35,617 nt of DNA from an uncultured virus (IMG/VR IMGVR_UViG_3300034012_002207) (IMGVR_UViG_3300034012_002207); one strand, 5' to 3'; shown: positions 6,527 through 25,600, counted from the stretch's first letter. The notes: generated by a model from the sequence alone, not told the origin. Numbers and translations are program-made.

Positions 6527-6534
6527 GATTGTCT

Positions 6535-7545: not shown

Positions 7546-7547
7546 AT

Positions 7548-8390
7548 ATGAGTAAATCATTTCAACAAGTAAGTGAATTAGAAAATACCTTAATGGTAGT
7601 GGATGCACTAAACTTAGCATTTCGCTGGAAACACAATGGCGCAACAGACTTTTATGAAGATTACTTGCGTACAATAGATAGTCTTAAAAAGAGTTACAAA
7701 GCTCGCTGGGTTATTGTGGCTGCGGATCAAGGTTCAAGCAGCTATCGTAAACAGATTTATCCTGAATATAAGCAAAACCGAAAAGATAAATTTGCTGAGC
7801 AAACTGAAGCAGAACGTGCAGCTTTTGAGCGATTTTTTGAAGACTACCAGCACACACTAGACTGGATTCGTACTCAGACTACATACCCGGTTGTTCAGTT
7901 TCCACAAACTGAGGCTGATGATATAGCCGCTTACATAACTCAACAGGTCAAAAACTATCCAGTTACCCATACTTGGCTAATCAGTAGCGATAAAGATTGG
8001 GATCTACTAGTGGGTGAAGATACTAGTAGATTTAGTTATGTAACACGCAAAGAAGTTACAGCTAATAATTGGCACACTCACTACGACTTTACACAAGATC
8101 AATACATTAGTATTAAATGCCTAATGGGTGATACTGGAGATAATGTTCGCGGAGTAGAAGGCATCGGCCCTAAACGTGCTCATCAACTTGTGGAAGAATG
8201 GGGCACTGCTCTTGACATAGTTGCAAATCTACCTATCTCCAGCAAACTAAAATACGTTAAAACACTTAATGATAGTGCAGATACTATCATGCTAAACTAT
8301 CAACTTATGGACTTAGTTACATACTGTGCAGATGCACTAGGTTCTAATACCCGACAAATAGACACCATCCTACAAGAGTATATTAAATGA
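7548..8390 (+). CDS. D15: 5'-3' exonuclease / flap endonuclease (T5 D15-like)
   Basis: VDALNLAFR, PEYKQNR, EADD, SSDKDWD and the H3TH motif GDTGDNVRGVEGIGPKRA. Confidence 0.95.
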   Translation: MSKSFQQVSELENTLMVVDALNLAFRWKHNGATDFYEDYLRTIDSLKKSYKARWVIVAADQGSSSYRKQIYPEYKQNRKDKFAEQTEAERAAFERFFEDYQHTLDWIRTQTTYPVVQFPQTEADDIAAYITQQVKNYPVTHTWLISSDKDWDLLVGEDTSRFSYVTRKEVTANNWHTHYDFTQDQYISIKCLMGDTGDNVRGVEGIGPKRAHQLVEEWGTALDIVANLPISSKLKYVKTLNDSADTIMLNYQLMDLVTYCADALGSNTRQIDTILQEYIK

Positions 8391-8872
8391 TGATAACAAA
8401 TGGCGCAACACTAACAGGAACAACTAATATAGCAGGATTTTATGCTAGTACACTTAATATTCAATGTTTACGACTAACGGCAGATGCAGAGCTACCTAAA
8501 CGTCAGCACCCCACAGATGCAGGAGCCGATCTGTGTAGTGCGGAAACTATTGATCTTTATCCTGAAGAAACCAAAGCTGTTGGTACAGGTATAGCAGTCA
8601 AAATTCCAGTAGGCTTTGTCGGGTTAATCTTTAACAGATCCAGTCAAGGAAAAAGGGGAATCATACTGCCTAATAGCGTAGGCGTTATAGACAGTGATTA
8701 CCGTGGCGAACTAAAAGTTCTGTTAAAAAATATTTCAGGCGACCTATATAAAATTTCACAAGGCGACAGAATTGCCCAGCTAGTAATAGTACCAATTCAA
8801 TTAGCCACATTTACAGACTGCTGGAATGATACCCAACGAGGTACAGGTGGCTTTGGCAGCACAGGAACATAG
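8387..8872 (+). CDS. dut: trimeric dUTPase
   Basis: AGADL, RSS, GVIDSDYRG, DRIAQL and RGTGGFGSTG motifs. Confidence 0.97.
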   Translation: MMITNGATLTGTTNIAGFYASTLNIQCLRLTADAELPKRQHPTDAGADLCSAETIDLYPEETKAVGTGIAVKIPVGFVGLIFNRSSQGKRGIILPNSVGVIDSDYRGELKVLLKNISGDLYKISQGDRIAQLVIVPIQLATFTDCWNDTQRGTGGFGSTGT

Positions 8873-8881
8873 AGGAGTAAC

Positions 8882-10843
8882 ATGACAAGCACACGAGCAC
8901 AAGTAATTACACGCAGAACTTATAACAGACCCATCAGTGATGATGGCAAACAATTTGAAACTTGGCAAGATACTGTTAGCCGAGTAATCTCACATCAGGC
9001 ATGGTTGTGGGAACGTGCTGCCGGTAGGCAGCTGCTTCCCAATGAGTACGCAGAACTAAATCGCCTAGAACAACTTATGCTTGAGCGTAAAGTTTCTATG
9101 AGCGGTCGTACCTTATGGCTAGGCGGCACACAAGTAGCTAAAAATCGTGAAGCATCACAGTTTAATTGTAGCTTTACAGAGGTTGAAACTGTATATGACG
9201 TAGTAGATGTACTATGGCTACTTTTACAAGGTTGCGGCGTAGGATTTAAGCCTATTATAGGCACACTAAATGGATTCTCAAAACCTATTCAAAATATCGA
9301 AGTGGTACGATCACAGCGTACTGAAAAAGGTGGCTGTGAACATAATGTAGAAACTTGGGACCCGCAAACAAAAACTTGGCGTATTCAGGTTGGCGATAGT
9401 GCAGAAGCATGGGCTAAAAGCATTGGTAAACTAATGGCAGGAAAATATCCTGCTGATACTCTTGTTCTAGACTTCAGTCAACTGCGTCCTGCTGGTGAAA
9501 GGTTAAAAGGCTATGGATGGATTAGTTCGGGTGACTCGGCTATCAGTACTGCTTATGTTGCTATCGCCCGTATCCTTAATGGACGGGCAGATTCACTACT
9601 CACCAGAATGGATATCATGGATATTGTTAATTGGCTTGGTACCATTCTGTCTAGTCGCCGAAGTGCTGAGATTGCGCTTTTCGACTACGGCCAACCGGAG
9701 TGGCAAGAATTTGCAGTAGCTAAAAAAGACTGGTGGTTGCATGGCAATGCACATCGTCAGCAAAGTAACAATAGTCTAGTGTTTAATGAAAAGCCTACCT
9801 ACGAGCAACTAAGCGAAATCTTTGCAATTATGCAAGAAGCTGGCGGAAGTGAGCCAGGGTTTATTAATGCACAAGAAGCACGTCGTCGTGCACCTTGGTA
9901 TAAGGGAGCAAATCCTTGTGTTGAGATTCTACTCGGAAACAAATCATTCTGTAATCTTACAGAAACAGATATTGGAAAGTTTAAGGGAAATACCGCAGGA
10001 CTTCACGAAGCTATACGGCTTGCCGCCCGAGCTAATTACCGTCAAACCTGTGTTAACCTCAAAGACGGTATCCTTCAAGAAGCATGGCATCTCAACAATT
10101 ACTTCTTGCGACTGTGTGGTGTAGGCCTAACTGGTATTGCTAAGCGTCCAGACATGACTGGTTACGATTATGAATACCTAAAACGTACAGCTACTAGTGC
10201 AGCAATTGGTATGGCTGATGAGCTAGGCTTACCACGTCCCAAGAATATTACTTGTGTTAAGCCTAGTGGCACGTTATCGAAAATTATGGATACCACTGAG
10301 GGAGTTCATAAGCCTCTAGGCAAGTACATTTTCAACAATGTACAGTTTAGCAAGTACGATCCAGTTGTAGATAAATTGCGTGAAGCAAACTACCGAGTAT
10401 TTAATCATCCCACAGACGATACCGGTGTTCTAGTAACCTTTCCAGTAGAGTGGTCGGATGTTCCATTCCACAAACAAGATGGCAAAGAAGTTAACCTAGA
10501 AACTGCTATTGACCAACTTGAACGATATAAACTAATTCAAACTTCGTGGACTCAGCAAAATACCTCAGTAACTATTAGCTACGAGCCGCATGAAGTTCCA
10601 CAAATTGTAGATTGGTTAATGAATAATTGGGACTGCTATGTTGGAGTTTCATTTATTTATAGAAGTGATCCTACAAAAACAGCCAAAGATCTTGGCTACC
10701 TATACCTACCACAAGAAGTTGTCGACGAATATACGTTTCGCACATATGTTCAAGACCTAAAAGCCGTCAATATAGATAGTGCCAATAGTTTTGACGCAAT
10801 CTTAGATGACGAATGTTTAACCGGCGCATGCCCAGTAAAGTAA
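8882..10843 (+). CDS. nrdJ: class II adenosylcobalamin-dependent ribonucleotide reductase (monomeric RTPR type)
   Basis: GRTLW, FNCSF, GCGVGF, RRSAEI, NPCVEI, CNLTE, KPSGTLS and C-terminal CLTGACP. No beta-subunit gene is adjacent. GAGGAG RBS. Confidence 0.92.
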   Translation: MTSTRAQVITRRTYNRPISDDGKQFETWQDTVSRVISHQAWLWERAAGRQLLPNEYAELNRLEQLMLERKVSMSGRTLWLGGTQVAKNREASQFNCSFTEVETVYDVVDVLWLLLQGCGVGFKPIIGTLNGFSKPIQNIEVVRSQRTEKGGCEHNVETWDPQTKTWRIQVGDSAEAWAKSIGKLMAGKYPADTLVLDFSQLRPAGERLKGYGWISSGDSAISTAYVAIARILNGRADSLLTRMDIMDIVNWLGTILSSRRSAEIALFDYGQPEWQEFAVAKKDWWLHGNAHRQQSNNSLVFNEKPTYEQLSEIFAIMQEAGGSEPGFINAQEARRRAPWYKGANPCVEILLGNKSFCNLTETDIGKFKGNTAGLHEAIRLAARANYRQTCVNLKDGILQEAWHLNNYFLRLCGVGLTGIAKRPDMTGYDYEYLKRTATSAAIGMADELGLPRPKNITCVKPSGTLSKIMDTTEGVHKPLGKYIFNNVQFSKYDPVVDKLREANYRVFNHPTDDTGVLVTFPVEWSDVPFHKQDGKEVNLETAIDQLERYKLIQTSWTQQNTSVTISYEPHEVPQIVDWLMNNWDCYVGVSFIYRSDPTKTAKDLGYLYLPQEVVDEYTFRTYVQDLKAVNIDSANSFDAILDDECLTGACPVK

Positions 10844-11070: not shown

Positions 11071-11719
11071 ATCTGGGTGAATCGTCAGTGTCTTGGTCAC
11101 TATCCTCATCATCCATATCATCCGAACTATCTTCATCACTATCGTATAAGGTACTAACTATTTCTACTAGTATGTCGCGATAAGGTTGGTCTACGTCTGG
11201 TAAGTCTTGTAAGTATACATCAACATGACCATTACGTAGTAGTTCTGCGTGGTACATAAACTGACCAAAGGCTTCTACTTCTTCTGAGATACTTTCGTTA
11301 GCATAGTCTTCAATTGCTTCGGCTACAATGTCTAGATATTCCTGCTTTACATATGCTTTTACTGTTAGGCTTAGTAATTTAAGAGCTTTGCCTTCGCGTT
11401 CACGCATAATTTGATTGCGTTTAGCCTTGCTCCACGAATAACCACCATCGCCTCCCCAGAGATCCCAAGCTACTCTACCCTTACTAGGAAAACCTTCTTC
11501 GCCGCTACGAAAACCTGTAGCCCTTTTGTCTACTTCATGACGAGAAAAAAAGCTGTACATTCGTAGGACAGTTGAAGCGCTTAGTGGATCACGATCCTTT
11601 AATTGATTAGCTCTGGCTAAACCTACTAGGGTACCACCAGGCTTACCTTCGTCTTTCCACTTTAGGGCACGACGAGCTGCCGATGCCATGCCACTAGTGG
11701 GTTTGTAAGTTTTTGCCAT
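11069..11719 (-). CDS. conserved phage hypothetical protein (basic N-domain, acidic C-tail)
   Basis: GGT.VG.ARA.QL..RM.SFFSRHE.DK..PS.G..AW.LWGGD.G..W pattern, recognised as recurrent in phages. D/E-rich C-terminus. Confidence 0.8.
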   Translation of the reverse strand: MAKTYKPTSGMASAARRALKWKDEGKPGGTLVGLARANQLKDRDPLSASTVLRMYSFFSRHEVDKRATGFRSGEEGFPSKGRVAWDLWGGDGGYSWSKAKRNQIMREREGKALKLLSLTVKAYVKQEYLDIVAEAIEDYANESISEEVEAFGQFMYHAELLRNGHVDVYLQDLPDVDQPYRDILVEIVSTLYDSDEDSSDDMDDEDSDQDTDDSPR

Positions 11720-11720
11720 T

Positions 11721-12410
11721 TTAATCCTTATATGCTAAAATTATTTGTTTACACATTTTGCTACGAACTATATCTTGATCTAAAAATCTAATTACTTCAA
11801 TACCTTCAATACCTTCTAGCCGTTTTATAGCGTCCTCTAGTCCTGAATTATTTAAGTCTCGCTGATCTGGGTCACCGCTTAAAATTACTTTACAATTTTT
11901 ACCTATGCGTGATAAGAGCATTTTTAGTTCAGTTTTAGTTAAGTTTTGCGCTTCATCGACTAAAACTATTGCATTATCAAATGTTGCTCCACGCATAAAT
12001 CCTATAGGCCGGGGTTCTATATCTTTATTTTTAAGTGCATATTCATAGAATCCTTTACCTAAAGATCGTTGAAACACGTTGTCAAATGGTTCTAAGTATG
12101 GGGCATACTTTTCCTCTAATTCACCTGGTAAAAATCCTAAGCCGCGGCCAGTTTCTACATTTGGACGGGTTAGTATAATTTTATTTATGCGTCTATGAAA
12201 AAGCTCTCCTGCAGCATAGCTAGCAGCTACAAATGTTTTACCTGTACCTGCACTGCCTACTCCAAAAACTACCTCATTTTGTTTTATAGCATTTAAGTAT
12301 TGTTCTTGTATAAAATTAAGAGGTTTTACATCTCTAAATCCATACTCAATTGGGTTTGATTGAGTATTGGTTTGTTGTTTACGAGCTTTTTTACCTGATC
12401 TAGTTGCCAT
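11721..12410 (-). CDS. phoH: PhoH-family ATPase
   Basis: GSAGTGKT, LTRP, LGFLPG, FMRGATF, DEAQN and GDPDQRD motifs. Confidence 0.95.
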   Translation of the reverse strand: MATRSGKKARKQQTNTQSNPIEYGFRDVKPLNFIQEQYLNAIKQNEVVFGVGSAGTGKTFVAASYAAGELFHRRINKIILTRPNVETGRGLGFLPGELEEKYAPYLEPFDNVFQRSLGKGFYEYALKNKDIEPRPIGFMRGATFDNAIVLVDEAQNLTKTELKMLLSRIGKNCKVILSGDPDQRDLNNSGLEDAIKRLEGIEGIEVIRFLDQDIVRSKMCKQIILAYKD

Positions 12411-12450
12411 TGATTCGACCCTGTTAAGAAGTTAAGGTTAAACACTTAGA

Positions 12451-12648
12451 TTACTTTTTTGTGTCTGGTTTTACCTCACTAGGCTTTTGAGCCCCTTCTA
12501 GTTTCTTATGGATCTTTATAGTTTTACAAACTTCTTGCTCTTTACCTTTGCTATCCTTTTGGATCTCACAGACCCGTTTTGTTTCGGGTTCAGCTGCCAC
12601 ATAGCCTGTAGCAAACAACGAAATTAATACCGCTAAAATATATTTCAT
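12451..12648 (-). CDS. small secreted protein with 2 Cys
   Basis: Sec-type signal peptide ending in VAA, followed by a C-x13-C hairpin and a basic tail. Confidence 0.7.
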   Translation of the reverse strand: MKYILAVLISLFATGYVAAEPETKRVCEIQKDSKGKEQEVCKTIKIHKKLEGAQKPSEVKPDTKK

Positions 12649-12650
12649 GA

Positions 12651-12869
12651 TTAGTCCTTTTTGTGTGGGCTAAACTTTTCAGTAACAATTACACCTAAAC
12701 CTACTAATACTATGTACATCATACTATCGTATAGTGTTCCGTCTACCTTATACCCAAAAAATAAATTAGCTACAAAACCTAGGCTACATAGCATAAAAGC
12801 TAAAAATGTTATTACACGTTTGCTGCTTAGGCTGCCATCTACTCCATCTTGTAGTAGTGATTTAAGCAT
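12651..12869 (-). CDS. 2-TM membrane protein, holin candidate
   Basis: SSKR followed by two hydrophobic helices and a charged C-terminus; lies near the endolysin. Confidence 0.65.
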   Translation of the reverse strand: MLKSLLQDGVDGSLSSKRVITFLAFMLCSLGFVANLFFGYKVDGTLYDSMMYIVLVGLGVIVTEKFSPHKKD

Positions 12870-13313
12870 TTAAATCTCCGGGTGTGGTGCTTGTGGAGGC
12901 TTAGGTTTTCCGCCGTATCCCGCTTCTGGCTGACCACTAGCAAACAGTACTGGCTCTTGTCTGACGTGCTGCGGTTTAGGTTCTGGTGTACGTATAGCCT
13001 CAATAGTAGCTTTAAATCCATCTTGTTGTTGTTTTTGTGCTTGAAGCATTACTTCTTGATCTTCTTTTTTAGCTCCTGCAAGCATAATACCACTAAGTGT
13101 ACCAGTTAAAAATGTTGCTATAGGTACAATAAGTTCAAAGAACTTTTGATCAATTGGACTCATAGCATTAAGTGGCTGTGTAACAAATATTATACTGTAT
13201 AAAACTACAAATACAATGCCTGTTAGTGTAAGTGCTAGACAAACTCCTATAAAGAATTTAAGTCTAGCCATTAGTTGTTCTTCGGTATAAATTAAAGTCT
13301 CCTTATTTTGCAC
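12870..13313 (-). CDS. 2-TM membrane protein
   Basis: Two hydrophobic segments and a Q/P-rich tail; GGAGG RBS. Confidence 0.75.
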   Translation of the reverse strand: MQNKETLIYTEEQLMARLKFFIGVCLALTLTGIVFVVLYSIIFVTQPLNAMSPIDQKFFELIVPIATFLTGTLSGIMLAGAKKEDQEVMLQAQKQQQDGFKATIEAIRTPEPKPQHVRQEPVLFASGQPEAGYGGKPKPPQAPHPEI

Positions 13314-13593
13314 CTTTAGCTCCTCCTTTATCTGGTTGACACTGTTGACAAGTTTGAGTCATTGGTTCTTGCCGGGTCTCTGGCGGCCCTAGTCTAGGAT
13401 CTCGCTGCCCTTTAAATATATGCTCTGGACAAGTACGAGTAACATCGCATAGTGGTTTCTGACACTGCTTAGTTTCCCAGTTTTGAGGATCTTGACAAGG
13501 ATATCTAAACCTATCGCTACCAAAAGCAGCTAGTGCAACAGGTAGTGCAAGTAAAATTAACAAGAATAGAAATAGTTTTTTATCACTAATCAC
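13303..13593 (-). CDS. exported/membrane-anchored Cys-rich protein
   Basis: N-terminal hydrophobic segment, then RYPCQDP.NW..CQKP.C...RTCP. Confidence 0.72.
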   Translation of the reverse strand: MISDKKLFLFLLILLALPVALAAFGSDRFRYPCQDPQNWETKQCQKPLCDVTRTCPEHIFKGQRDPRLGPPETRQEPMTQTCQQCQPDKGGAKGAK

Positions 13594-13595
13594 CG

Positions 13596-14219
13596 TTAGC
13601 CTCCTAGTATGTGTAAGGCGTGCTCGTAGTGTTTTTTACGATCTTCTATGCCTATTGTACCACCATTAATTCGTTTTGTCAAGGTTAAAATATCCCCTTG
13701 GTCTGCCCAACGATTTAAGCTATTAGTTTCCCAAAACCAGCACGCACTTTGAGCAGCTCCTTCAAAGGTTTCTAGGTAATCTGCTGCTTCTTCTGGTTTG
13801 ATTTCTATGCTGTGAGCAAACCAAGTATAATTATCTTTACCAGTTAGCTGAATAAGTCCTCGGCCACGGTATCGCCATCCATCACCTGAAGCCTCATCGC
13901 CATTACCCATACGATTAGCATATACACGGTTAGCTATTGCCTCTTGCTTATTGGGTTTACCAGCATACTGTTGTGCTAGTTCATCCGTAGGAAAGTATTT
14001 AGAAAATACTTTGCGTAAGCTTTGCCAACGATAGTTAAGATTTTCTTGTAAGACTGTAAACTCAGCCGACTCATGTGCACACTGTGCAATCCAAGCTGCT
14101 TGACGTAGTGGAGTGTTAATTTCGTAATCTGGAAATAGCTGATTAATAACTTGTAACCAATAGCTTGTATATTTATTTCGTGGTATTAATTTTTGTAATT
14201 GTTCTAAGGTTAAGGTCAT
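13596..14219 (-). CDS. endolysin, glycoside hydrolase family 19
   Basis: AQCAHES, ENLNY, YANRMGNG, GWRYRGRGLIQLTGKDNY and TKRINGG motifs. Confidence 0.93.
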   Translation of the reverse strand: MTLTLEQLQKLIPRNKYTSYWLQVINQLFPDYEINTPLRQAAWIAQCAHESAEFTVLQENLNYRWQSLRKVFSKYFPTDELAQQYAGKPNKQEAIANRVYANRMGNGDEASGDGWRYRGRGLIQLTGKDNYTWFAHSIEIKPEEAADYLETFEGAAQSACWFWETNSLNRWADQGDILTLTKRINGGTIGIEDRKKHYEHALHILGG

Positions 14220-14479
14220 TTTATGTCCTCAAATAATTTACGTTGAGTTTTGTACCACTCCTGCCACATACTAGATTTTAAGCTACAATCATGGTAAAGG
14301 TGATAATTTTCTGTAACCGTTTTAGCTACATCACTAAGTTTAGCATTTTGTTCTAGTGGTTTTAAAGATCTGCAAGGCTCTAGTAATACCTGTGGTGCTT
14401 CTGGAAATTTGGGTTTTAGTGGAACAGGAGTGCTACAGCCTACTAACGCTAGTGATAATACTATTACTATCGATTTCAT
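14216..14479 (-). CDS. o-spanin (Rz1-like lipoprotein)
   Basis: LALVGC lipobox, Pro-rich segment and two more Cys; 4-bp overlaps with the i-spanin and endolysin genes. Confidence 0.82.
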   Translation of the reverse strand: MKSIVIVLSLALVGCSTPVPLKPKFPEAPQVLLEPCRSLKPLEQNAKLSDVAKTVTENYHLYHDCSLKSSMWQEWYKTQRKLFEDIK

Positions 14480-14910
14480 TGTATTTTTTCCGCCGCACGA
14501 TTATGTGCGTCTACAAATGGTTGTGGAATTTCACACCGAGTATCATACTTAACTACTTCTCGGTCAACATACTGTACTATATTTTGACCGCGTTCGCGTA
14601 CTATTTTCTGTTGCACAACTACTTTTTCTACTATCTTAATATTTTCTTTTGCCCCTTCAGCCTCAGCTTGTGCTAGTTTAACTTCTAGTTCTTTTATCCT
14701 AGCCTGCCAAGCACGTTCATTAGCTATAGAGCCCAGCATATAAACTCCGATAACTACAAGTATAATAGACCCAATTTGTAGTGGAGTTTTGTACACATGA
14801 ATTATGGGTAGTGGAATAAACTTAAGTAAATAAGTTACCACTAGTCCAAATAATCCTAAGGCTAGTACCATATAAAATAGCCACCAAGGTAGCCATTGAA
14901 GAATCCACAT
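14476..14910 (-). CDS. i-spanin (Rz-like)
   Basis: N-terminal TM helices, a coiled coil and C-terminal C.IP..FV.AHN.AA. Start at MWILQW chosen because of the GGAG RBS. Confidence 0.78.
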   Translation of the reverse strand: MWILQWLPWWLFYMVLALGLFGLVVTYLLKFIPLPIIHVYKTPLQIGSIILVVIGVYMLGSIANERAWQARIKELEVKLAQAEAEGAKENIKIVEKVVVQQKIVRERGQNIVQYVDREVVKYDTRCEIPQPFVDAHNRAAEKIQ

Positions 14911-14918
14911 TGCGTCTC

Positions 14919-15437
14919 CTACCATCGGCCTGCTTCGCGGCCAATATCAAATAACCATACAAAAAATTTAATTGCAATAGTAAGTGTTATAACTAGTAAG
15001 GTTCCCCAGAATAGGTTTTCAATAAACCGTTTTCTACGGCGAGCTTGATCACGAATCATACGCTCACGGCGCTCACGAATTTCACGACGTAGCTGATTAA
15101 ACTGACTATAGCCCTCTGCTCCTAGGTGTTGAAGTTCACCATAATAAAACATATGATATATTTCAGCTTCCATTTCTCGCAATTTTTGCTGTGCTATAAT
15201 TATATCAAAGGCTTCTGCTGTTGCGGTTTTACCAAATCCTATTTTTTCAAACAAGCCAGGTTTTTGCTCACCCGTATCCGTTTTATTATCATTGATTAGT
15301 TGTTGAAGTTGCCCTGCAGCATCCGCCCACTTACTTAATTGACGGTATACTCCCTCGACTTCTTGACCTACTTTTACAGCAGCTTTTAGGCCATTAAATG
15401 CAGCTGTTACCGTACCCATTAGCGTTAGCGGATCCAT
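14919..15437 (-). CDS. conserved hypothetical membrane protein
   Basis: MDPLT start with AAGGGGAG RBS, amphipathic N-terminus, Arg-rich stretch and C-terminal TM helix. Confidence 0.8.
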   Translation of the reverse strand: MDPLTLMGTVTAAFNGLKAAVKVGQEVEGVYRQLSKWADAAGQLQQLINDNKTDTGEQKPGLFEKIGFGKTATAEAFDIIIAQQKLREMEAEIYHMFYYGELQHLGAEGYSQFNQLRREIRERRERMIRDQARRRKRFIENLFWGTLLVITLTIAIKFFVWLFDIGREAGRW

Positions 15438-15447
15438 ACTACTCCCC

Positions 15448-16116
15448 TTAATTAGCAAGAGGATTATCTAGTGCCTTTTTAATCTTGTCATCTACCTCAC
15501 GCCGAATAGCTCGTAGTTCACCGTTAGTATCACGTTCAATTCTGTTTACACGTTCATTTACGGTTTGTACAGTTGCATCAACTTGTTTTTGCATTTCACG
15601 AACACTGGTATCAGCACTACGACGTATTTCTTTTATTTCTGTATCTACTTGTCGTCGTATTTCTTTAACATCGTCATCAACTTGTCTACGAATACTAGCC
15701 ACTTCTTTTTCGGTTTCACGCTGAGCAACTTTAGATCCCCGCTCTACACCTTCTAAGACAGTTTCTGTGCGACGAATATCGCCTTTTAGATTTTGATTAA
15801 TATCACGAGTATAGCCTACTACTTTTTCACTATTTTCTTCTAGTTTAATTATGCGAGCCTCATATTCACTAAAGTCGGGTGCAACATAGCTTGCAATCTT
15901 TTTCTTCATATTTTCGTAGTCTTTGTAGGCTTCAAAAACTCCATACATGCCGCCGACTACACTACTTATAATACCGGCCGCAATCATTAGCTTTGCAGGT
16001 GTAAAACTGTACCCGCCTATACTAATCACAGTATCTTTACTAGCGTACTTTTTTAGGGCAGCTTCTGCAGCTTCTACCTTTTTGTTAATGTCAACATTAC
16101 TTTCTGTATTGCTCAT
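15448..16116 (-). CDS. single-TM coiled-coil protein with 11-aa repeats
   Basis: TM helix at about aa 43-62, hendecad repeats (EIRRQVD) and an ALDNPLAN end. Confidence 0.8.
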   Translation of the reverse strand: MSNTESNVDINKKVEAAEAALKKYASKDTVISIGGYSFTPAKLMIAAGIISSVVGGMYGVFEAYKDYENMKKKIASYVAPDFSEYEARIIKLEENSEKVVGYTRDINQNLKGDIRRTETVLEGVERGSKVAQRETEKEVASIRRQVDDDVKEIRRQVDTEIKEIRRSADTSVREMQKQVDATVQTVNERVNRIERDTNGELRAIRREVDDKIKKALDNPLAN

Positions 16117-17545
16117 CAATCATCTCCTGGTGAAGCCGGTCGCTGCGCTGTGAAAGTGCGCGCTGAGCACGCGGATTATCTGGTAGTGTACGATTACGAT
16201 AAATTTCCTTGCTAGTATAAAATACAGCGTCTGGTAGGTTAACTTGTTGATACTGATCAAACCCCGGTACTGTACCCATTTGTGCAACTTGTTGTGCTTG
16301 TTGCTGCTGCTGGGGGTCTTGCCGAGCGCGCTCCGCGCGCTGGGTTTGAGCGGCTTGGGTTCGACGTTGCTGCTGTGCTGTAGGTTGAGGTGTAATACCG
16401 GATACAGTTAAACCTGTACCAAGTTGTGGGTTTATATTAATTTGAGAAGTAGGACTGGTGGTACTAGTAATACTTGGTACAGTAATTGCTTGCTGCGCTT
16501 GAGGGTCCCCTATTAATACAGTTTCTGCTAGTTTGCTAGTATCGGTTAAAGAATTTGATTGACTAGGGCTAAGAGTAGGAGTAGTATAATTGGTACACTG
16601 TGGACTACTCTGCGAATTAGATTTACACGCATCTGTTACCTGTTTTTCTTTAAAAGCGTTTGCATATCCTGAACAACCAGAATTGTATAGAGGATTTGCT
16701 GTGCATTGTTGATTGAAGTATGCCTGCGGGTACAGTAAACAGGCCGTAGAAAAAAGGGGGTTAGAAGCACATTGTTGATTTAGATATGCTGATTCGTATC
16801 CGGGACACTCAGGAGAAAACAAAACATTCACTGAGCATTGTTGACTACGATATGCTTGTGCATACCCCTGACAATTTGGACTGTATATAGAATTAATATT
16901 GCATTGAGATTGAAAATATGCTTGTTGATAGTTTGGACAGGTTGATGCATAAAGTGGATTCACAGCGCACTCATCAACCACATACATTGCATTTAAAGAA
17001 ACATTTTTAATCTGCGGTCCATAATAACCCGCCCAATACCTATCATCTTTTCCATTAAAACTTACATCAAACCTATCAACAAAATCTAAATTAAATGGAC
17101 TGCCATAATTTCTTTTACCACTTACAGTTTCCCATCCATTTGTTTGATTAAGTGTATAGTTGTCTTTTTGTTTACTGAATCCAAATTGATCTTTTAGATC
17201 AACAGAAAAAGAAACAAATCCTCTATTAAATTCACTATTCATGTATTGAAAAGAATAGTTGTATCCATAAAGTCTTAGATGAGTACCTTGTAGAGCTTCA
17301 CGTAATCTTATTTCTTGGTTAACAATTTGCTGTGTATAACCAAATAGTATTGTTTGTGTTTGAGGATTATAGGCTGCGCGATTTCCTCCAGATGTTCCTC
17401 CTGGAGTATAATTACCTGTAACAGTATTTGCCCAGCTATTTTGAATTAGATTGGGTGTTGTATGTATATCCTGAGCACTACAGGAGAATGAGAAGAATAG
17501 CCAGGACGCCAAGCCCAGCACTAACTTTTTGCCAGAAACTTGCAT
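16097..17545 (-). CDS. exported protein: putative lectin-like domain, Cys repeats and S/T/Q-rich linker
   Basis: Signal peptide, GKDDRYWAGYYGP motif and about six 22-aa two-Cys repeats. Confidence 0.8.
   Translation of the reverse strand: MQVSGKKLVLGLASWLFFSFSCSAQDIHTTPNLIQNSWANTVTGNYTPGGTSGGNRAAYNPQTQTILFGYTQQIVNQEIRLREALQGTHLRLYGYNYSFQYMNSEFNRGFVSFSVDLKDQFGFSKQKDNYTLNQTNGWETVSGKRNYGSPFNLDFVDRFDVSFNGKDDRYWAGYYGPQIKNVSLNAMYVVDECAVNPLYASTCPNYQQAYFQSQCNINSIYSPNCQGYAQAYRSQQCSVNVLFSPECPGYESAYLNQQCASNPLFSTACLLYPQAYFNQQCTANPLYNSGCSGYANAFKEKQVTDACKSNSQSSPQCTNYTTPTLSPSQSNSLTDTSKLAETVLIGDPQAQQAITVPSITSTTSPTSQININPQLGTGLTVSGITPQPTAQQQRRTQAAQTQRAERARQDPQQQQQAQQVAQMGTVPGFDQYQQVNLPDAVFYTSKEIYRNRTLPDNPRAQRALSQRSDRLHQEMIDEQYRK
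16587..16975 (-). repeat. about 6 degenerate 22-aa (66-bp) Cys repeats
   Basis: C-x2-N-P-L-Y/F-S-x2-C-x2-Y-x2-A-Y-x2-Q-Q units in the translation. Confidence 0.85.
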
Positions 17546-18023
17546 TGTTACTCTCCTTTACGGATTCAGGTTTTCGTGTTGGATTGGTGTCCCATATTCT
17601 CTTAGCTTCTTCGCCGATCTTACCATCCACTGGACAAGGTGTTCCAGCATTCATCATGGCAGTAAATACTCGATCATCTTGGCATAGTGTGGATACCGCT
17701 GCAACCTTCATGCCCATGTCATAAAGATTCTTTGCAAGCTTAATACGTTCACAGTTCATATCCCGAACAGTACTACCACCACTAATACCTAAGATTTGAG
17801 TTTGTACTGCTCCTGACACACCAACAGTACAAAGATCATTGTTAATTACAGTAATACCTGGACTAATAGCACTAGGTGGGGGCGATTTAACTGTAGTTTC
17901 ATTTACGCTAGTACTAGTCGAATTAGATTGACTATTACTTGTTGATTCTGAAATAATCCTGTCTGTTGTTTGGGCAAGGGCAAGGCTTGAAATCAAAAAT
18001 AATAGCCAAACTAATTGTCGCAT
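17478..18023 (-). CDS. exported, C-terminally anchored Cys-containing protein
   Basis: Signal peptide (ALA-Q), Ser/Thr linker, four-Cys domain (NCERIK, GMKVAAV, AGTPCP) and a hydrophobic C-terminus. Confidence 0.82.
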   Translation of the reverse strand: MRQLVWLLFLISSLALAQTTDRIISESTSNSQSNSTSTSVNETTVKSPPPSAISPGITVINNDLCTVGVSGAVQTQILGISGGSTVRDMNCERIKLAKNLYDMGMKVAAVSTLCQDDRVFTAMMNAGTPCPVDGKIGEEAKRIWDTNPTRKPESVKESNNASFWQKVSAGLGVLAILLILL

Positions 18024-18038
18024 AGTAACCTCTACGTA

Positions 18039-18416
18039 TTATGGATTAATAGGTGCGGGTGGTGCAGTAGTAGGTGTAGGTGCAGGAGCCCAAGGTAGTG
18101 TAGCTTCAGTTACTGGAGTTAATTTATCATCAATCTGTTTTTGAATTTGAGCATTAACGTGTTCTTCGTAACCGCCAACGACTACAGCTTTAATCCATTC
18201 TAAAACCATTTCTTCCGTAAGTTGGTCAAAAGGAATAAATGTATATCCTTCAGGCATTCCTACTGTAGTAAAAGGTGTTGCACCTGAAAATGTTCCTGTA
18301 TTTCCATTTTCATCAGTACCAGTTTTTGTCCAGTATGTTTGAACAATAGCATTTTGATTTGAACCTTCAGTTTTAGTTTTTGCTGAAGTTACTTTCCATG
18401 TATAAGTAATTGCCAT
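18039..18416 (-). CDS. conserved tail-fibre-associated phage protein
   Basis: TYTWK...FIPFDQLTEE.VL.WI...LPW pattern, usually found next to fibre genes; AGGAG RBS. Confidence 0.75.
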   Translation of the reverse strand: MAITYTWKVTSAKTKTEGSNQNAIVQTYWTKTGTDENGNTGTFSGATPFTTVGMPEGYTFIPFDQLTEEMVLEWIKAVVVGGYEEHVNAQIQKQIDDKLTPVTEATLPWAPAPTPTTAPPAPINP

Positions 18417-18440: not shown

Positions 18441-18533
18441 TTGTTTTGCTAGTAGTTATCTTACTAGCATTTTTAACTTGTTGATTTCTGACTGTTATTA
18501 TTTGATGGGCGTAACTAAGAGGTTACCATAGTA
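18441..18533 (-). pseudogene. decayed C-terminus of a peptidase S74-type intramolecular chaperone
   Basis: The intergenic frame reads YGNLLVTPIK**QSEINKLKMLVR*LLAK, with TAA where E/Q codons are expected. Confidence 0.55.
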
Positions 18534-18541
18534 ATTCCTTA

Positions 18542-19000
18542 TTATACGGGTTGGGTTGGCCATTCTACTGACCAAGGAAAGTTTGATTGTGTGGTAATAT
18601 TTCTAAGAGCTTGTCTATACGTTGCCCATGTTTGTTTATCTACAGGGGTGTCTGCTACTTGTGTCCAATCTGTGCTTGAAAGTAGTTCATTTCTCCGTTT
18701 TCTTATGTCGTATGCAGCAGCATCAAATCTAGTTTGAATGTGTTCTGGAAGTGCATCAACTACACTCCAAACCCTTGTCCAAGTTCCGTTTTGTAGAGTT
18801 GGTTGTAGTTCAACTAATTCTTTAGTATGATCAATCTGTGGCATTACGCTTTCTGCTACCCTAAAAATACCTCTACTATTCAGAGAATCTTCTTCTACAG
18901 GAATAGTAAACGATGTATTAGGAAAATCTACTCTTAAATCGTACAGATTATAAGGGTATTTCTCAATTTCACCATTACTATTTAATTTTACATATATCAT
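18542..19000 (-). CDS. tail fibre assembly chaperone-like protein
   Basis: C-terminal R..RN.LL..TDWTQ..D.P....WA.YRQALR.IT.Q..FP....WP..P motif. Confidence 0.88.
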   Translation of the reverse strand: MIYVKLNSNGEIEKYPYNLYDLRVDFPNTSFTIPVEEDSLNSRGIFRVAESVMPQIDHTKELVELQPTLQNGTWTRVWSVVDALPEHIQTRFDAAAYDIRKRRNELLSSTDWTQVADTPVDKQTWATYRQALRNITTQSNFPWSVEWPTQPV

Positions 19001-19013
19001 TAGTTTTCCTTAA

Positions 19014-19688
19014 TTAGTAGTCTGTACCTGCCATATAGTATCCAGTATATATAGTCCATGCGGTACCGCCCGAAGCATTGCCTACAAAAACATAGCTTTG
19101 ATTTGCTGAAAAGTATCCTGCAGGAGAGGGTGTAGCTAGATAAGAGTTTGTAGTAGCTATGCCAGATGCACCACTCGTTCTATTATGATTACCAAATAAT
19201 ACTTCTAGTACAGGTACTCCGCCTGTTTTTGCGCTATTAAAAAAAGTAGCTTCATATACAATACCAGGTGAACCAATAGTACCGCTAGTACTACCATTTC
19301 CTTCATATCTAATTCTTGTATAATCAGTTCCAGATTGAATCATTGAAACTTGTTGATATGAATTATCGGCAGCTCCTAAGTGAATTTTATGTAGAGCAGG
19401 ATTACTTGCACTTAAACTACTAAAAACAGTTGAACCACTGCCAAAAGTAATATAAGTATTTGAACCGATATAGGCTGTTGTAAAACTATTTAGATTAAGT
19501 GCAAAGCTTGGTATAGTAACACTAACAAAACTATCATCAACATTTCCATATGATAAACCTGTCCAACCACTAGGAGGATAATTAGGATGTCCACCAGCAC
19601 CTAGGGTTGGCGCTTTAGTTCCGGCTGTTAGTGTATACCCTCTGGGTTGACCACTAGCCATAAAATTATTAAAACTAATTGTATCCAT
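19014..19688 (-). CDS. putative fibre-tip/adhesin-like beta-rich protein
   Basis: Gly/Ser/aromatic-rich, with a nidogen-like DDSF..V.IP.F...YIGSNTYITFG segment. Lies between the fibre and chaperone genes. Confidence 0.55.
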   Translation of the reverse strand: MDTISFNNFMASGQPRGYTLTAGTKAPTLGAGGHPNYPPSGWTGLSYGNVDDSFVSVTIPSFALNLNSFTTAYIGSNTYITFGSGSTVFSSLSASNPALHKIHLGAADNSYQQVSMIQSGTDYTRIRYEGNGSTSGTIGSPGIVYEATFFNSAKTGGVPVLEVLFGNHNRTSGASGIATTNSYLATPSPAGYFSANQSYVFVGNASGGTAWTIYTGYYMAGTDY

Positions 19689-19689
19689 T

Positions 19690-22600
19690 TTAATTATCGT
19701 AGTTAGTTAAATAAGAACCACGCCATCTACTTCCAGCATCATCTGTAACAAACATAAATAAGTGAGTTTTACCTGTTGTTAAGGAAGGAGCAGTGTTACC
19801 CGGCCATTTTACAGTTGAAGGCCAAGTAATAGTACCACTAGTGTGTGTTACTTCAAGTGTAAATGAGTATGCAAGAGTATATCCACTTAAACTAGTTACA
19901 TTACTAAATGTAAATGTACTATTACCAGCAATTGTTTTTGTAAAGTAGTTGCCTTGCCTACAATCAATATCTAGTGCTCCAGGAGTGATACCGTTATAAT
20001 TAGCAGCTTTTAAATGAAAAACATAGTTTTCACCAACATATATATTAGAAGAACTACCTGCTGTTATAATTACACGATCTCCTGTACTACTACTAGCCTC
20101 TATGTTTAGATCTTGGGAGGTTTGTCTATTATAAGTAAAAATTTGAGTCAATACATCATTACCACCAGAATTCCTATCAGCAAAACGTATAAATGATCCA
20201 AATCTAGCTGCTGTTGGAGTTTGTGTTCTTCTAATAACAATGACAGGATATTCAAGAAAACTATTACTAGTATTTTCGATTAAAAATGTTGATTGAGTAC
20301 GAGTACTACCAGACATATACATGGGTATGTCTGTTGCCGTTCCATATGCATTATCGCTAGGATCATTAGCAGTATTAACTCGTAGTTTAAGAAGTCTAGA
20401 AGTGCTTGCTGGATCTACATAATAAGCAGTATTATCACGATCATACATTAAGTTTGAATAAAAACTACCACTCTCTACTCGAGTATGTTCGTCACCTTTA
20501 TTAATCGAGAATCTTATTGTTTCAAGACCTTCATTGTTGTAGAATCTAATACCACCATAGCCAGGTTGAGCACCCATGCGAATACCGGTGTGCCAACGTA
20601 AATCGAGCTTGGTATATGTGCCACCATAGTTTTCAAAGTTAGTACCAATATAGTAACTGCCAGCCGCGTTATCATCGCCGCCACCAAACATAAGGCGAAT
20701 ACCATCAACGCTACTATAAGGGTTAAGACCATTGTAACCGCCTATAGTGACTCGTCTATAATTTGTTGGATGAAGATTTATTGTCCAATTACCCGTGCTA
20801 TCTAATAAACCAAATCCAGCACTGTCCCAATAAATAGATCCTTTTCTTCCGGTTGAGCTATTTTGAGTGCTGTTAAACTGGTCATAAAATATTAATCCGC
20901 CAACTGAAACACTACCATTATCTGGATTAATGTGCCAGTAATTAGCACCTGCAGAATAAAAATGCGAATCAGTTGCAGTATTGTATAAACCAGTCGCAGA
21001 ATTTTGATTTCTAAACCAACCATAGTTGTATATCTGATTAGGAAATACATCATTGAGTCTGCTGCTGCCGTTAGGATCGCAGTAGTAATTGGTGTCGTTT
21101 TGATCGTAAACAATAGGCGTGCGTACATCTGTGTATGCTTGTAGAATACCATCAACCTGTAACGCTGTAGGTGTTCTAAAGTTTCTTAAGTCGCTAGTTA
21201 TATTTGTAAATGACTCTGTTGTGGTTTGAGCTACGCTGTATGATCCACCAAGATCCATTGCATTGTTATAAAACGAAGCATTATGAATTTTTCTTAATCT
21301 TACAGTACCGTAGTTCCACTCTGATCCAGAAGTTCCAATGACTACACAATACTGACCGTCTTTAAATCCTAGTCTTACTTGTTTGTCAATGAACCCAACT
21401 ACATTACAAGAATTATTATACCAAGCACTATTCCAATTATGTCCGCCGACTATGATTGTAGCAGTGCGAGGAGAATTGTACTCGTAATAATCAAATACCA
21501 TGTGTACCATACCATAGTTACCGCTACCACCTGGTAACTTGAATATGATCATACCAGTACTACTTCCACTCGAAGACCACTCTACGTTAGGGAAAGCATG
21601 ATTTTCGCCTAGTTCAATTGCGCCTGCGATTTTTAATGAACTAGTAGTACTATTTGGATCTAGATAGTATGTGGTATCATTAGAGTCATAGAAAATCTGC
21701 GCTCTCATAGAGGAGCCATCTGCTACAGAATAATCATCTCCAACAACACGCAGTCTCCAACTAGCCCCACTGTTTAAAAATCCAATATTATTACTACTGT
21801 CTGCATACACATATCCACGAGACGTGCCTTGATGCCCGCCCGTTCTAAAAATAATACCAACATTAATGCCATTATTTCCAGCTAAGTTCCAGTAGTCGTT
21901 GCCAGTTGCATACCAGTGATTTCCATAAGACTCATTATACAAACCTTGTTGTCCGTAGTTTCTAAACCAGCCGCCAATATAAACTTGGCCAGCTATGTTT
22001 GCATTGTTGCCTGGATCGACATAGTAACCAGTGTTATTTATCTCATAGAATATTGGTGCGCGCATATCATCGCGAGCACGAATACTTCCTGAAACGGCTG
22101 CTAAGAAACCTCCATTTTCTAAAACTAGGAGGCCGTGTGTGTTTAGATTGCCGGCTGTTCCACCAGCATTTGGGTGTGACCAAGCTAGTCCATATAAGCT
22201 TCCAGTAGTAGTACCATCTGCAGGAAGTTTATACGAATCTCCCATTGCAAACACGCCTTGGTATCTATAAGAAGAATATACACCAACTATACCTTTACCG
22301 TAGTCGTCAAATACAATATTACGACCATAAGTAATTCTTGTGGCATCACGGGTGTCGTGGTAGTGAATTAAACTATCTGTTCCAGCATATCGGCTATAAC
22401 GATATGCAGTATATTGGCTATCCCAATACCATCGGTCACCATACCAGCCACTACTATCTTCACCAAATCTGAATTCAGAAGTACCAGAATCGTGTGCTCC
22501 TAGGAATAGGCTTCGTTGAAACGAAGTGCTATTTGGGTCTAAATAGTAACTAGTATCATTAGAATCATAGAAGATTGGTGAACGCATGTCAACAGGAGCT

Positions 22601-25600
22601 GTAACGTTACCGCTAGTATTGATGGTTAAATATGGTGCTCCCCATCCAGTACTAGCATCTGTCCATCCACCATAATATGCTCTATGACCATGATTTTTAG
22701 TTATACGAAATGTGTCGTCACTGCCTGTTACAAATCCTACAGACCAAGAAGTATTTACCTGATTACTTGAAAATAAAATAGAAGGTCTATCTCCGGCTCC
22801 ATCAATTCTATATTCTGCCACTACACCCCATGAATGGTTTCCGTGAAGATTTCTAAATAAGAATCCGGATCCGTTATTTGTTGCACTTACACGATTATCA
22901 AAGAAAGCTGCGTGTCCATTCACTGCGTTGTTGCTTCCAATAAAGTGTAGATTATATCCAGGAGTATGTGTTCCAGATCCACCTGAAACAGTCCAGTCGC
23001 CTTCAGATCCTATTCCGATGTAGCCGTTTGTTCCAACATGGAAGAATGAAGTACCATTATATCCAGAAATACCATTGTGAGGATTCCAGTCACCTGCAGA
23101 AGAATAACCCATTGACAACATAGTACCAGTACCATTAGTACCAATAACAAATTGATGCCCTGTGCCATTAGATGTAAACTGAATAGTTGGTCCATGCTGT
23201 GTGTTAGACGTAACAGTATGATTTAGTGATATTACCGGATACGCGCCATGTGCTTGAATAATTGCTCGTTGATTAGTATCTTGAAGAGAGTATTGTACAG
23301 CAGTAGCGCCAACAACTAATTCATTCCCGTAGATGCCAGTAGCTCCACCACTTATAGTCAAAAATCTAGATTGACGTGTTCCACCTGTACCATCAAAATA
23401 ATAACCAGTATCATTTGAATCATAAAATATTGGTGCGCGATAACTATTGTTGGTTTGAACCGCAGTGGCATACTCAAGGATCCCACCTCTGTAATTTTCT
23501 AAAACTACATCACCATAACTATGGCGCAAATTAAATTGGGCAGGACTTCCAGCAGAAGTATTCTGCGATTGTAAAATAGCTTGTACATCATTTCTAAATA
23601 AATTTATGTACCCAGCTGTGCGAAAAGATAAATCGGCACCAGGGTCGACATAATAACCAGTATCATTATAATCATAGTATATCGGTGAACGCATCTGACT
23701 ATCGGCGTCGACGCGTGTATTATAAGATGTATGTGCTCCAGAAGCAGAATCCCAAACACTATTTTGAGCTGATGAAGTTGGTGATACACTCTGACTATTA
23801 ATACTGTAAGTACTTGATTGTGCAGTAGCACCTAAATTGCGACTAAAATAAAAGTAGTAGGTGCCACCACCGCGTAGCCATACAACTTCAGTACTACTAT
23901 GTATCATTTGCGTAATACCACCACAAATAGTCAAATTAGTAAATCTTTCGTGGTATTGTTCTACCCTTCTCTTAACTTCAGTAGTTCCCCAGCTACTACC
24001 GTTAGTCCACCATCTTAGATTTAAAGTAAATCCGCTTGGGTGTGTAGCCCAAGATGGAACGTTAGAGTTTAAATTATTTTGAATCTCTATCCAGCATCCG
24101 CCAGTTGGAACTTGTATAGTTACAGGATAGTAATTGCTTGTGCTATATGTCGAAGTGTTCGACATGTCAACTGTTTGTGGTTTATACAGTTGTACATTGC
24201 CGTCATCAATAGTAATTGAGTTTAGTCTGGATGTGCTTGCTGGATCTGTATAGTATGCTGTATTATTTGAATCATAGAATATAGGTGCTCTAGATGAAGA
24301 AGAAGATGTTGTATCTCCACTGCTAATTGTAAATGACCAAGTCGATCCATATCCAACATTATTAAATTCATAGTAGTTAGCGTTAAAGTATCTACTGCTT
24401 CCTGATGTATAATCTCTCGATCCCCAGCTACCAGCTGATCCTGCAGTCCCCGCCATGTAAAGGAAGCCTGATACATGTGCATCACCACTAATACTTAATC
24501 TTACGTCTGGTGTGGCACCACCTAATCCAAGATTTACGAGTTTAGAATTTGAATTTGGATCTACATAGTATGCAGTATCATTAATATCATATAATCCTGG
24601 CATCCTTGGCCAAGTGTCAAAATAAAATGCCCCACTTGGTGCACTTAAATTAATATTACCATCACCAATTGGTGTTATCGTATTTAAATAAGTTCCAGAA
24701 CCTACATTAATGTTCCCAATTCGCGAAGTGTTTAATCTCGATGTGCTAGCTGGATCTAAATAATAATTAGTATCATTAGCATCATAGAAAATTGGTGAAC
24801 GAATTGATCCGTTGTAAACGTATCCTCCGTCATTAGCGCCTTGTGCCATTAACGTTAGCGGATGATTAGACATCGTTCCAATTTTGCCCACGCCTTGACC
24901 AGTGTGTGAATACATCGTAGTGATAATGCCATCACTATTGCTAACTACATCTAATCTCGCATGAGCAGAACCAACAAGATTCATTCTAGCATTCCAACTA
25001 CCATCATTGCTGGAACTTACGTTTCCAGCAAAAATGTGAAGTAGTCTAGAGCCACTGTTTGGATCTAGATAATAATTAGTATCATCAAGGTCGTATATAA
25101 ATGGAGCATACAGCGTAACGTGTGATCTAACATTATTATCCCACATTCCCGTCGAGAATAATAGTGTTTCTCCACCATCACCATGACCATTCATATCAGC
25201 ATCAGTTGTCGGAGAATTATTATAGAATCGTGTTCCTCCGTAATTATAATAACCACCTATTCTAATTCCAGTATGGTGTCCAATGATATAGTCTTTATAT
25301 GGATATGACCAACTACTATAGCCATTAGCTATATCCATACCCTGTGAATAATGGCCCCCACCAAATGAAGTTCCACCAGAACCAGATCCATGTTGTATTT
25401 TACCTGCATAAAGTTGAATTTCATTTGGAAGAATGCTATTTAACCTAGATGTACTTGCAGGATCTGTATAATATGCAGTATCGTTTGAATCATAGAAGAT
25501 AGGAGATCTAAAATCACCAGATGCATATCCGGTACCGTTGATACTTACTCTGTGAGATGAATTGTGATTGTTTTCACCAAAATACCAATTTCCTGAAGTC

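Follow-up and report, generated by a model that had tools for sequence, protein, structure and literature searches.

A conserved trio of genes for exported envelope proteins in aquatic phages, with a possible role at lysis or release

The subject of this report is a cassette of four consecutive genes, here called A, B, C and D, in a stretch of 35,617 nucleotides (nt) from an uncultured virus (IMG/VR IMGVR_UViG_3300034012_002207); this whole stretch is referred to as the window. The genes lie on the minus strand (Table 1). Neighbouring genes share 68 nt in the case of A and B, and in that of B and C 20 nt if C is taken to start at its ATG or 23 nt if at its TTG. Between C and D there is a gap of 10 nt, and D in turn overlaps the following gene by 7 nt. 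For D, the homologues in our alignment use the ATG at 15437, which gives a protein of 172 amino acids (aa). To judge from gene order and spacing in its relatives, A-B-C is a translationally coupled, conserved trio. We describe the proteins and their conservation, and then weigh what such a cassette might do.

The four proteins and their relatives

Protein A opens with a leader of the n-h-c pattern (residues 1–17, MRQLVWLLFLISSLALA/Q), ending SLALA/Q. The leader is followed by a Ser/Thr-rich spacer, an invariant PPPxAxxP motif, a four-Cys domain of about 100 residues and a hydrophobic tail at residues 163–181. The four Cys (C65, C91, C114 and C130) are invariant, and 44 positions are invariant in an alignment of 65 sequences. 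Signal peptides of A and B were judged from the n-h-c pattern together with the A-x-A site. Both are kept in all 68 of the distinct A homologues listed and also across the B alignment, and no conserved lipobox was found in either set. In relatives the spacer, made of Asn/Ser/Thr repeats, ranges in length from about 40 to over 200 residues, and the hydrophobic tail is missing in about half of the relatives. The 68-nt overlap with B (17478–17545) encodes this tail in one frame and the signal peptide of B in another.

The relatives of A make up more than 8000 protein clusters at 90% identity, without a Pfam domain, and the nearest Atlas clusters are 94–100% viral. Only the core domain gives nucleotide-level matches to Pelagibacter phages. 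A wide structural search found no fold match for the A model (the best VIA Z score was 3.7, from a poor model), and a comparison with the sequences of solved structures returned noise only. Longer forms of A were considered as possible domain fusions and rejected as such: they have long Asn/Ser/Thr spacers or are apparent A-B run-ons without a Pfam domain, and the single exception with a Pfam domain is a probable chimera. In the databases, P0121 (460 aa) and P0218 (382 aa) have the appearance of A running on into B, and could be frameshifted calls or real fusions.

Protein B is modular. Its leader ends FSCSA/Q and the protein has 13 Cys. The AlphaFold 2 (AF2) model has a mean predicted local distance difference test score (pLDDT) of 80, and residues 30–190 form a beta-sandwich with pLDDT mostly above 90. 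Searched against PDB with Foldseek, this sandwich matches the sugar-binding domains of Fbs1/Fbs2 (E 3e-7 to 6e-6, probability 1.0) and also CBM4, CBM16, CBM22 and CBM11 (E 3e-7 to 3e-4 over all these matches). The head of B is thus modelled as a carbohydrate-binding jelly-roll fold of the FBA or CBM4-9-22 type, and sugar binding is predicted. It shares the fold of residues 30–190 with the FBA and CBM domains (Fbs1/Fbs2, CBM4, CBM22). It differs from them in that the sequence similarity is marginal, with weak phmmer matches to F-box sugar-binding proteins at residues 158–187 (E 0.09), and in having Cys repeats and a C-terminal domain specific to phages in the same chain. The repeats are five in number, of about 22 residues with two Cys each (QQCxxNPLYxxxCPGYxxAY, pLDDT above 90), and a disordered linker at residues 325–389 lies ahead of the helical C-terminal domain.

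Across 57 homologues of B the head is swapped for other domain types or duplicated. The repeats, counted by the motif C.G[YW], vary from 0 to 14 copies, and the length ranges from 332 to 804 aa in 50 complete distinct trios. The leader, the repeat motif and the C-terminal domain are retained. In those trios the lengths of B and C are uncorrelated (Spearman -0.22, n=50). B has no family match in Pfam, PHROG, NCBIfam or PADLOC, and a tblastn search of the phage collection with B gave no match because B is too divergent for such a search. A match to TraV among solved structures was discarded as chance level (E 4.5). No chain of the PapD, FimC or Caf1M type occurs among the 50 listed Foldseek matches of B or among the VIA matches of A, the latter obtained with a poor model.

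Protein C consists of a conserved N-terminal segment, one hydrophobic helix (residues 44–62) and a coiled coil of variable length. The coil is built of 11-residue repeats, which are seen in the DNA as a 33-nt repeat, and its hydrophobic periodicity peaks at 3.6 residues, not 3.5. Coil length differs among relatives through insertions and deletions. The tail reads DNPLA(N/K), and D218-N219-P220-L221 is invariant in the alignment. The NPL ending is present in the C-like proteins of HTVC033P, HTVC023P, HTVC202P, Mosig, Baldr, CRP-207, MW202481 and uvMED S28C10, and persists even in a C-like protein of 74 aa; HTVC115P is the exception. This architecture appears to be of the i-spanin type, with an N-terminal membrane helix, a coiled coil predicted to be periplasmic and a conserved C-terminal end. 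In PADLOC, C has only coiled-coil-type matches to ZorA tails (best E 2e-5), and we rejected its NCBIfam and PADLOC matches as coiled-coil noise.

Protein D starts with MDPLTL and continues with a helical region, an Arg-rich stretch and a C-terminal membrane helix at residues 145–163. Because the Arg-rich stretch precedes the helix, the positive-inside rule would place the body of D in the cytoplasm. The relatives of D amount to 180 protein clusters without a Pfam domain, all of whose nearest Atlas clusters are viral, and more distant D-like forms of 260 aa occur in four loci.

None of the four proteins belongs to a curated family in Pfam, NCBIfam or PADLOC, and PHROGs gave only unnamed families, for A and D. 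There was no match of A-D to an Rz or Rz1 model in Pfam or PHROGs, where the neighbouring 149-aa and 87-aa proteins do match; to CsgG or CsgF in Pfam or NCBIfam; or to the RI/RIII or holin T families in Pfam or PHROG, although the cassette may be functionally analogous to the latter. A, B and D match no defence-system model in PADLOC. The module is therefore outside every family tested, apart from the generic lectin fold of B.

A sequence-only reading of this locus had already described four tightly coupled genes with overlaps of 68 and 20 nt and a 10-nt gap, and all of these figures were reproduced. It had seen A as a C-anchored protein with a signal peptide and four Cys, and B as an exported lectin-like protein with Cys repeats; the leaders, the Cys counts and the Foldseek fold agree with this. 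It had also called C a hendecad coiled coil with a single membrane helix, as the helix position, the DNA repeat and the periodicity bear out, and D an Arg-rich membrane protein of 172 aa, for which both the Arg-rich stretch and the helix were found. Its suggestion that the products are directed to the envelope is supported by the A-x-A leaders. Moreover, its view that the proteins fall outside the known baseplate and virion families stood up, with no match to such a family in Pfam, PHROG, NCBIfam or PADLOC. None of the three outcomes that it had named as refuting it was seen. Among the roles that it offered as examples (receptor masking, superinfection exclusion, lysis-timing sensing and cell adhesion) no single one stands out, and the late-type motif and recurrent linkage to lysis genes described below point towards lysis or release.

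Conservation of the trio, replacement of B and a late-promoter-like motif

We confirmed at least 594 relatives of A in IMG/VR and kept the best 80 loci, so the loci lean towards closer relatives. These loci were searched with profiles built from our own alignments of A-D. As a result, B was found after A in all 74 loci with at least 300 nt beyond A, C after B in 60 of 61 testable loci, and D in 30 of the 49 loci with at least 1.5 kb beyond C. The genes always come in the order A, B, C, and in most cases the small overlaps are the same too. Between A and B, overlaps of 68, 4 or 1 nt occur most often; between B and C, it is an overlap of 20 nt or a gap of 1 nt. Since D is present in only 30 of 49 loci and has 180 clusters against the more than 8000 of A, the conserved unit is A-B-C and D is lineage-restricted. 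The earlier proposal that the genes co-occur in order in unrelated phages thus holds for the trio and only in part for D.

The trio is present in the Pelagibacter phages HTVC033P, HTVC023P, HTVC202P, HTVC115P, Mosig (a myovirus) and Baldr, and also in Roseobacter phage CRP-207, the Manatee Spring podovirus MW202481 and the T7-like marine uvMED S28C10. In bacterial and archaeal assemblies, A was found on 46 contigs, all from metagenome bins or single-cell assemblies of uncultured organisms; judged by title, no isolate prophage with A is among them. We found no description of the module in the literature, including the parts available to us of PMC6811365, PMC9004378, PMC9599517 and PMC9038755, the supplements being outside this search. 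Some existing annotations look wrong. The CRP-207 protein gp73 (L086, 3292–3873), labelled “putative lysozyme”, is a membrane coiled coil of the C type ending in ADNPL. The “transport protein tonB” of MW202481 (L084, 4272–5378) occupies the B position between A-like and C-like genes; its N-terminal region is rich in Cys and its linker in Pro. A DUF2730 label on the C-like gene of S28C10 was not retained, as current Pfam gives no such match at E 0.1 or below.

A comparison of the window with a close relative, locus L034, shows where the cassette changes. The two are 95.5% identical over 11085–16041 and 91% identical over 18520–20389, and the conserved part of A is 81% identical. In contrast, no nucleotide similarity could be detected in B, the end of A or the gene of a DUF7936 protein. 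The fibre gene differs as well in its body, and its last ~700 nt are 91% identical. The DUF7936 gene (18039–18416, between the fibre chaperone and A) has a 28%-identical version in L034, swapped together with B. By these alignments B is hypervariable, being swapped wholesale between phages that are ~95% identical on the downstream flank, and A and C are highly conserved. Its replacement between close phages means that B behaves like a host-specificity cassette. A and C, in contrast, behave like components constrained to match something that does not change.

T4-like phages make up many of the carriers, with homologues of family B polymerase, UvsX, RegA, gp44 and gp23. The T4 late promoter is TATAAATA, and CTAAATA is a cyanophage variant. 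In 57 of the 68 distinct loci, A is preceded at a distance of 16–90 nt by the motif [ACT]TAAATA. The corresponding counts are 28 of 217 for other genes with an intergenic gap and 28 of 1360 for random windows. The motif stands ahead of none of 77 B, 62 C, 27 D or 25 DNA polymerase genes. From its presence at A, and not at B, C, D or the replication genes, the cassette looks like a late transcription unit of its own. The motif also occurs ahead of Hsp20 homologues in five of nine loci and of ThyX homologues in three of five. It is absent ahead of A in the window, where the cassette sits inside the late run of genes from fibre to lysis. In one metatranscriptome run, short contigs agree with portions of A, B and D at 0–12 differences and, DNA carry-over being possible, weakly support their transcription. 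The contigs do not cover the region completely, and such gaps carry no weight as evidence.

Gene neighbourhood in the window and in other loci

The gene A in the window is preceded by genes for a 2563-aa fibre, a 224-aa protein, a homologue of tail-fibre assembly chaperones and the DUF7936 protein. Downstream of D are the i-spanin, the o-spanin, the endolysin and two small proteins, here called p96 and p147. As the sequence-only reading had stated, the endolysin and both spanins are encoded outside the cassette (Table 1). The stretch from fibre to lysis genes is an unbroken run on the minus strand, and terminator-like sites in the window number 6 against 5.9 expected by chance, so the stretch reads as one late gene run. 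Promoter-like sites of the sigma-70 type number 37, against 24.5 ± 4.9 expected.

Table 1. Features of the cassette and of the adjoining lysis genes in the window
Feature	Position	Strand	Basis	Remarks
Gene A	17478..18023	-	Open reading frame (ORF) call	181 aa, ATG start
Gene B	16097..17545	-	ORF call	482 aa, ATG start; exported modular protein
Gene C	15448..16119	-	ORF call	223 aa from TTG; 222 aa from ATG one codon later
Gene D	14919..15458 from TTG; 14919..15437 from ATG	-	ORF call	179 aa from TTG; 172 aa from ATG
Conserved core domain of A	17574..17891	-	Alignment conservation	Residues ~45–150
N-terminal beta-sandwich lectin-fold domain of B	16976..17458	-	AF2 model and Foldseek	Residues ~30–190
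Five Cys-bearing helix-loop repeats of B	16616..16978	-	Alignment and AF2 model	Residues ~190–310
Conserved helical C-terminal domain of B	16100..16378	-	Alignment and AF2 model	Residues 390–482
Adjoining canonical lysis genes	12870..14925	-	Pfam, PHROG, hydrophobicity	
Rz-like i-spanin	14476..14925	-	Pfam/PHROG match	149 aa
o-spanin	14216..14479	-	Lipobox and sub-threshold Rz1/LysC match	87 aa, lipobox LALVGC
GH19-type endolysin	13596..14219	-	PHROG endolysin, E 7e-76	
p96	13303..13593	-	Sequence features	Exported, signal peptide, 6 Cys
p147	12870..13313	-	Two membrane helices; PHROG 25359	Two-helix holin candidate

In other carriers the trio is repeatedly found near lysis genes. An M15 peptidase follows C in HTVC023P, a lysozyme lies four genes upstream of the trio in HTVC033P and three genes downstream of it in MW202481, and a protein with two hydrophobic stretches follows C in CRP-207. 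Homologues of p96 or p147 follow C in five T4-like or other loci, directly in four of them. In size, the membrane proteins after C in CRP-207 and in these five loci resemble holins. Loci L062 and L080 have both p96 and p147; L037, L038 and L041 have one of the two. The pair may represent an exported partner and a holin. In HTVC202P, Baldr and S28C10 the trio lies just upstream of TerL. In S28C10 it stands between the tail fibre and TerL, the place where T7 has its holin and Rz/Rz1, and none of the 54 features in the S28C10 record is named holin or spanin.

Genes for surface glycans lie near the cassette in several loci, and include glycosyltransferases, a sugar epimerase, UDP-glucose dehydrogenase and mannose-phosphate isomerase/cytidylyltransferase. 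L078 has a metallophosphoesterase and a glycosyltransferase between C and D (~8813–10575), and L008, which has no D, has them between C and the i-spanin (7043–8908). In several other loci A is closely preceded by sugar-nucleotide genes.

The remaining genes of the window include those for replication, ribonucleotide reductase (RNR), PstS and PhoH. The PstS-like and PhoH-like genes (6529–7545 and 11721–12410) are phosphate-related auxiliary genes typical of aquatic phages. DNA nearly identical to the window is present in lake-water metagenomes, and the G+C content of the window is 35–42%. As called from the first possible start, the i-spanin ORF contains two hydrophobic segments (residues 8–26 and 41–59). 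The PHROG spanin matches set in only at about residue 50, so that translation may begin further inside the ORF or the protein may be extended at its N-terminus in an unusual way. The fibre (19690–27381) contains many copies of a motif like RAPIFYDSNDTxYYxDPxxTS.

A possible role at lysis or release

The reading we favour, with a probability of about 40%, is that A-B-C, together with D in this phage, is a late exported envelope accessory of aquatic phages that acts at lysis or release. We favour it because of the apparent late control, the repeated linkage to lysis genes in separate lineages, the i-spanin-like build of C and the small membrane proteins that follow the trio. The cassette is not the spanin, the endolysin or the holin of this phage, since all of these are encoded next door. 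What we infer is that the proteins bind one another and influence lysis or release, what topology they have, and that the ligand is a glycan.

In the mechanism we propose, the Sec system of the host would export the products into the envelope of the infected cell, where they would act beside the holin, the endolysin and the spanins and not instead of them. C would sit in the inner membrane with its N-terminus inside, and its rod of 11-residue repeats would cross the periplasm and end in the invariant DNPL. A may be a highly conserved, disulfide-bonded periplasmic adaptor, which in this phage would be tethered to the inner membrane by its C-terminal helix, and it would be expected to dock on C or on a conserved component of the host envelope. 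The C-terminal domain of B would join A and C, and its exchangeable lectin head would bind the assembly to a strain-specific envelope glycan. D would be a tail-anchored cytoplasmic partner. A joint fold prediction of A (20–160), B (385–482) and C (63–223) scored 0.00, which is uninformative either way.

Several observations weigh against a role at lysis or release. No canonical lysis step is vacant in the window, as the endolysin, the i-spanin, the o-spanin and a holin candidate are all present. The families of its spanins and endolysin were found in only ~12 of 83 loci within the fetched stretch. In many T4-like loci the neighbours are instead DNA polymerase, UvsX, helicase, RNR and ThyX, or sugar-nucleotide and glycosyltransferase genes. 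The locus counts given above share ancestry, so they are not independent events. The AF2 model of A has a mean pLDDT of 57, with the lowest confidence in the most conserved stretch (residues 45–88). Finally, a variable lectin has no obvious role in lysis, and fits the recognition of host surfaces better.

This last point leads to the main rival, which we consider unlikely: that the cassette serves receptor masking, superinfection exclusion or progeny protection. The head of B would bind the receptor glycan, with A and C holding or delivering B, and B would act during its passage through the periplasm or on envelope debris, so that cells and debris stop capturing phage. Such a function best explains the swappable lectin and the glycan genes that neighbour the cassette in several loci. 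Of the trio it is B that is hypervariable, being replaced between the window and L034, and its N-terminal domain is swapped among different lectin-type folds, with varying repeat number. Moreover, phage receptor-binding proteins use the same jelly-roll fold, and only phages of aquatic origin have the family. This explanation accounts less well for a build of three parts and for late timing. T5 Llp, phi80 Cor and T4 Imm and Sp are likewise envelope proteins made by phages that act on the infected cell, and a variable, host-specific recognition part would suit such a function. These exclusion and masking proteins are, however, single and small, and often lipoproteins or made early, whereas the module has three or four proteins without a lipobox and a late-type motif. 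We recognise no outer-membrane translocator, so that before lysis the outer surface is probably out of reach for B. Nor is a co-variation of B with the fibre tip supported, given that the last ~700 nt of the fibre gene are conserved between the window and L034 though B differs.

It is improbable, in our view, that the cassette is a non-canonical, spanin-like disruptor of the outer membrane, with C as the strut and A and/or B as its partner, redundant in the window and essential in podoviruses without Rz/Rz1. The resemblance to two-component spanins (lambda Rz/Rz1; T7 18.5/18.7) lies in the helix, coiled coil and conserved end of C, in the exported partners, and in overlapping, apparently late genes that are often in lysis cassettes. 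A signal sequence plus a C-terminal membrane helix, as in about half of the A relatives, is also the outline of a unimolecular spanin, which in the T1 gp11 type has an N-terminal lipoprotein signal. In addition, no spanin is annotated in S28C10, HTVC202P and Baldr, where the trio lies just before TerL, although a missing annotation does not equal absence. Nevertheless, A and B lack a lipobox (ALA/Q and CSA/Q), so the trio has no lipoprotein partner, and A, with its C-terminal helix in this phage but a leader of the signal peptidase I type, does not appear to be a unimolecular spanin. The trio also has three components without a match to spanin families, one of them a hypervariable lectin of 400–900 aa with no counterpart in spanins, and a separate pair of Rz-like protein and lipoprotein adjoins it in the window and in 11 related loci.

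Still a little less probable is a surface adhesin that would stick infected cells to hosts or particles. The layout of B is suggestive of this, with a lectin tip, a disulfide-bonded repeat rod that varies in length, a Ser/Thr/Pro-rich stalk and a conserved anchor end, and the carriers are phages of dilute planktonic hosts. There is a precedent in the curli genes (CsgG/CsgF) of pelagiphages, for which a “sibling capture” idea has been raised: as far as the accessible parts of the sources describe them, these, like the trio, are multigene envelope modules absent from the host and common to unrelated aquatic phage families, with proposed roles in lysis timing or aggregation, and they are exchanged among pelagiphages (PMC9599517, PMC9004378). 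The trio proteins, however, are unrelated to them, have no Pfam curli match and lack an outer-membrane pore; no match to CsgG, an usher, an autotransporter or a secretin provides an outer-membrane route. The C-terminal helix of A would hold it in the inner membrane, and late expression leaves little time before lysis.

That the proteins are virion or tail-fibre accessory parts, with hydrophobic N-termini that are not export signals, is very improbable: the genes in the window do come directly after the fibre, the chaperone homologue and DUF7936, and the fold of the B head is also known in tail fibres and minor tail proteins, but the A-x-A leaders are kept in all 68 listed A homologues and across the B alignment, the paired Cys indicate an oxidising compartment, membrane anchors are present, no virion family is matched, and most loci have the cassette surrounded by replication genes, at a distance from the structural ones.

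The action at lysis or release that we favour can be taken a step further, to a claim that we regard as rather doubtful: that the trio belongs to a new functional class, a late envelope machinery nearly universal in freshwater and marine phages, in which an inner-membrane rod and a conserved adaptor would position an exchangeable lectin on an envelope glycan specific to the strain, and the assembly would gate or complete bursting, or else cloak receptors on the dying cell and so let progeny escape. If true, this would add a fourth component of lysis or release beyond holin, endolysin and spanin. The carriers of A-B-C infect some of the most abundant aquatic bacteria and include cultured SAR11 and Roseobacter phages. 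If the role in lysis or release is true, the current view of how planktonic phages exit their hosts or protect their progeny would be incomplete, and models of viral mortality in lakes and oceans would be affected. The swappable lectin would be a second determinant of host specificity beside the tail fibre.

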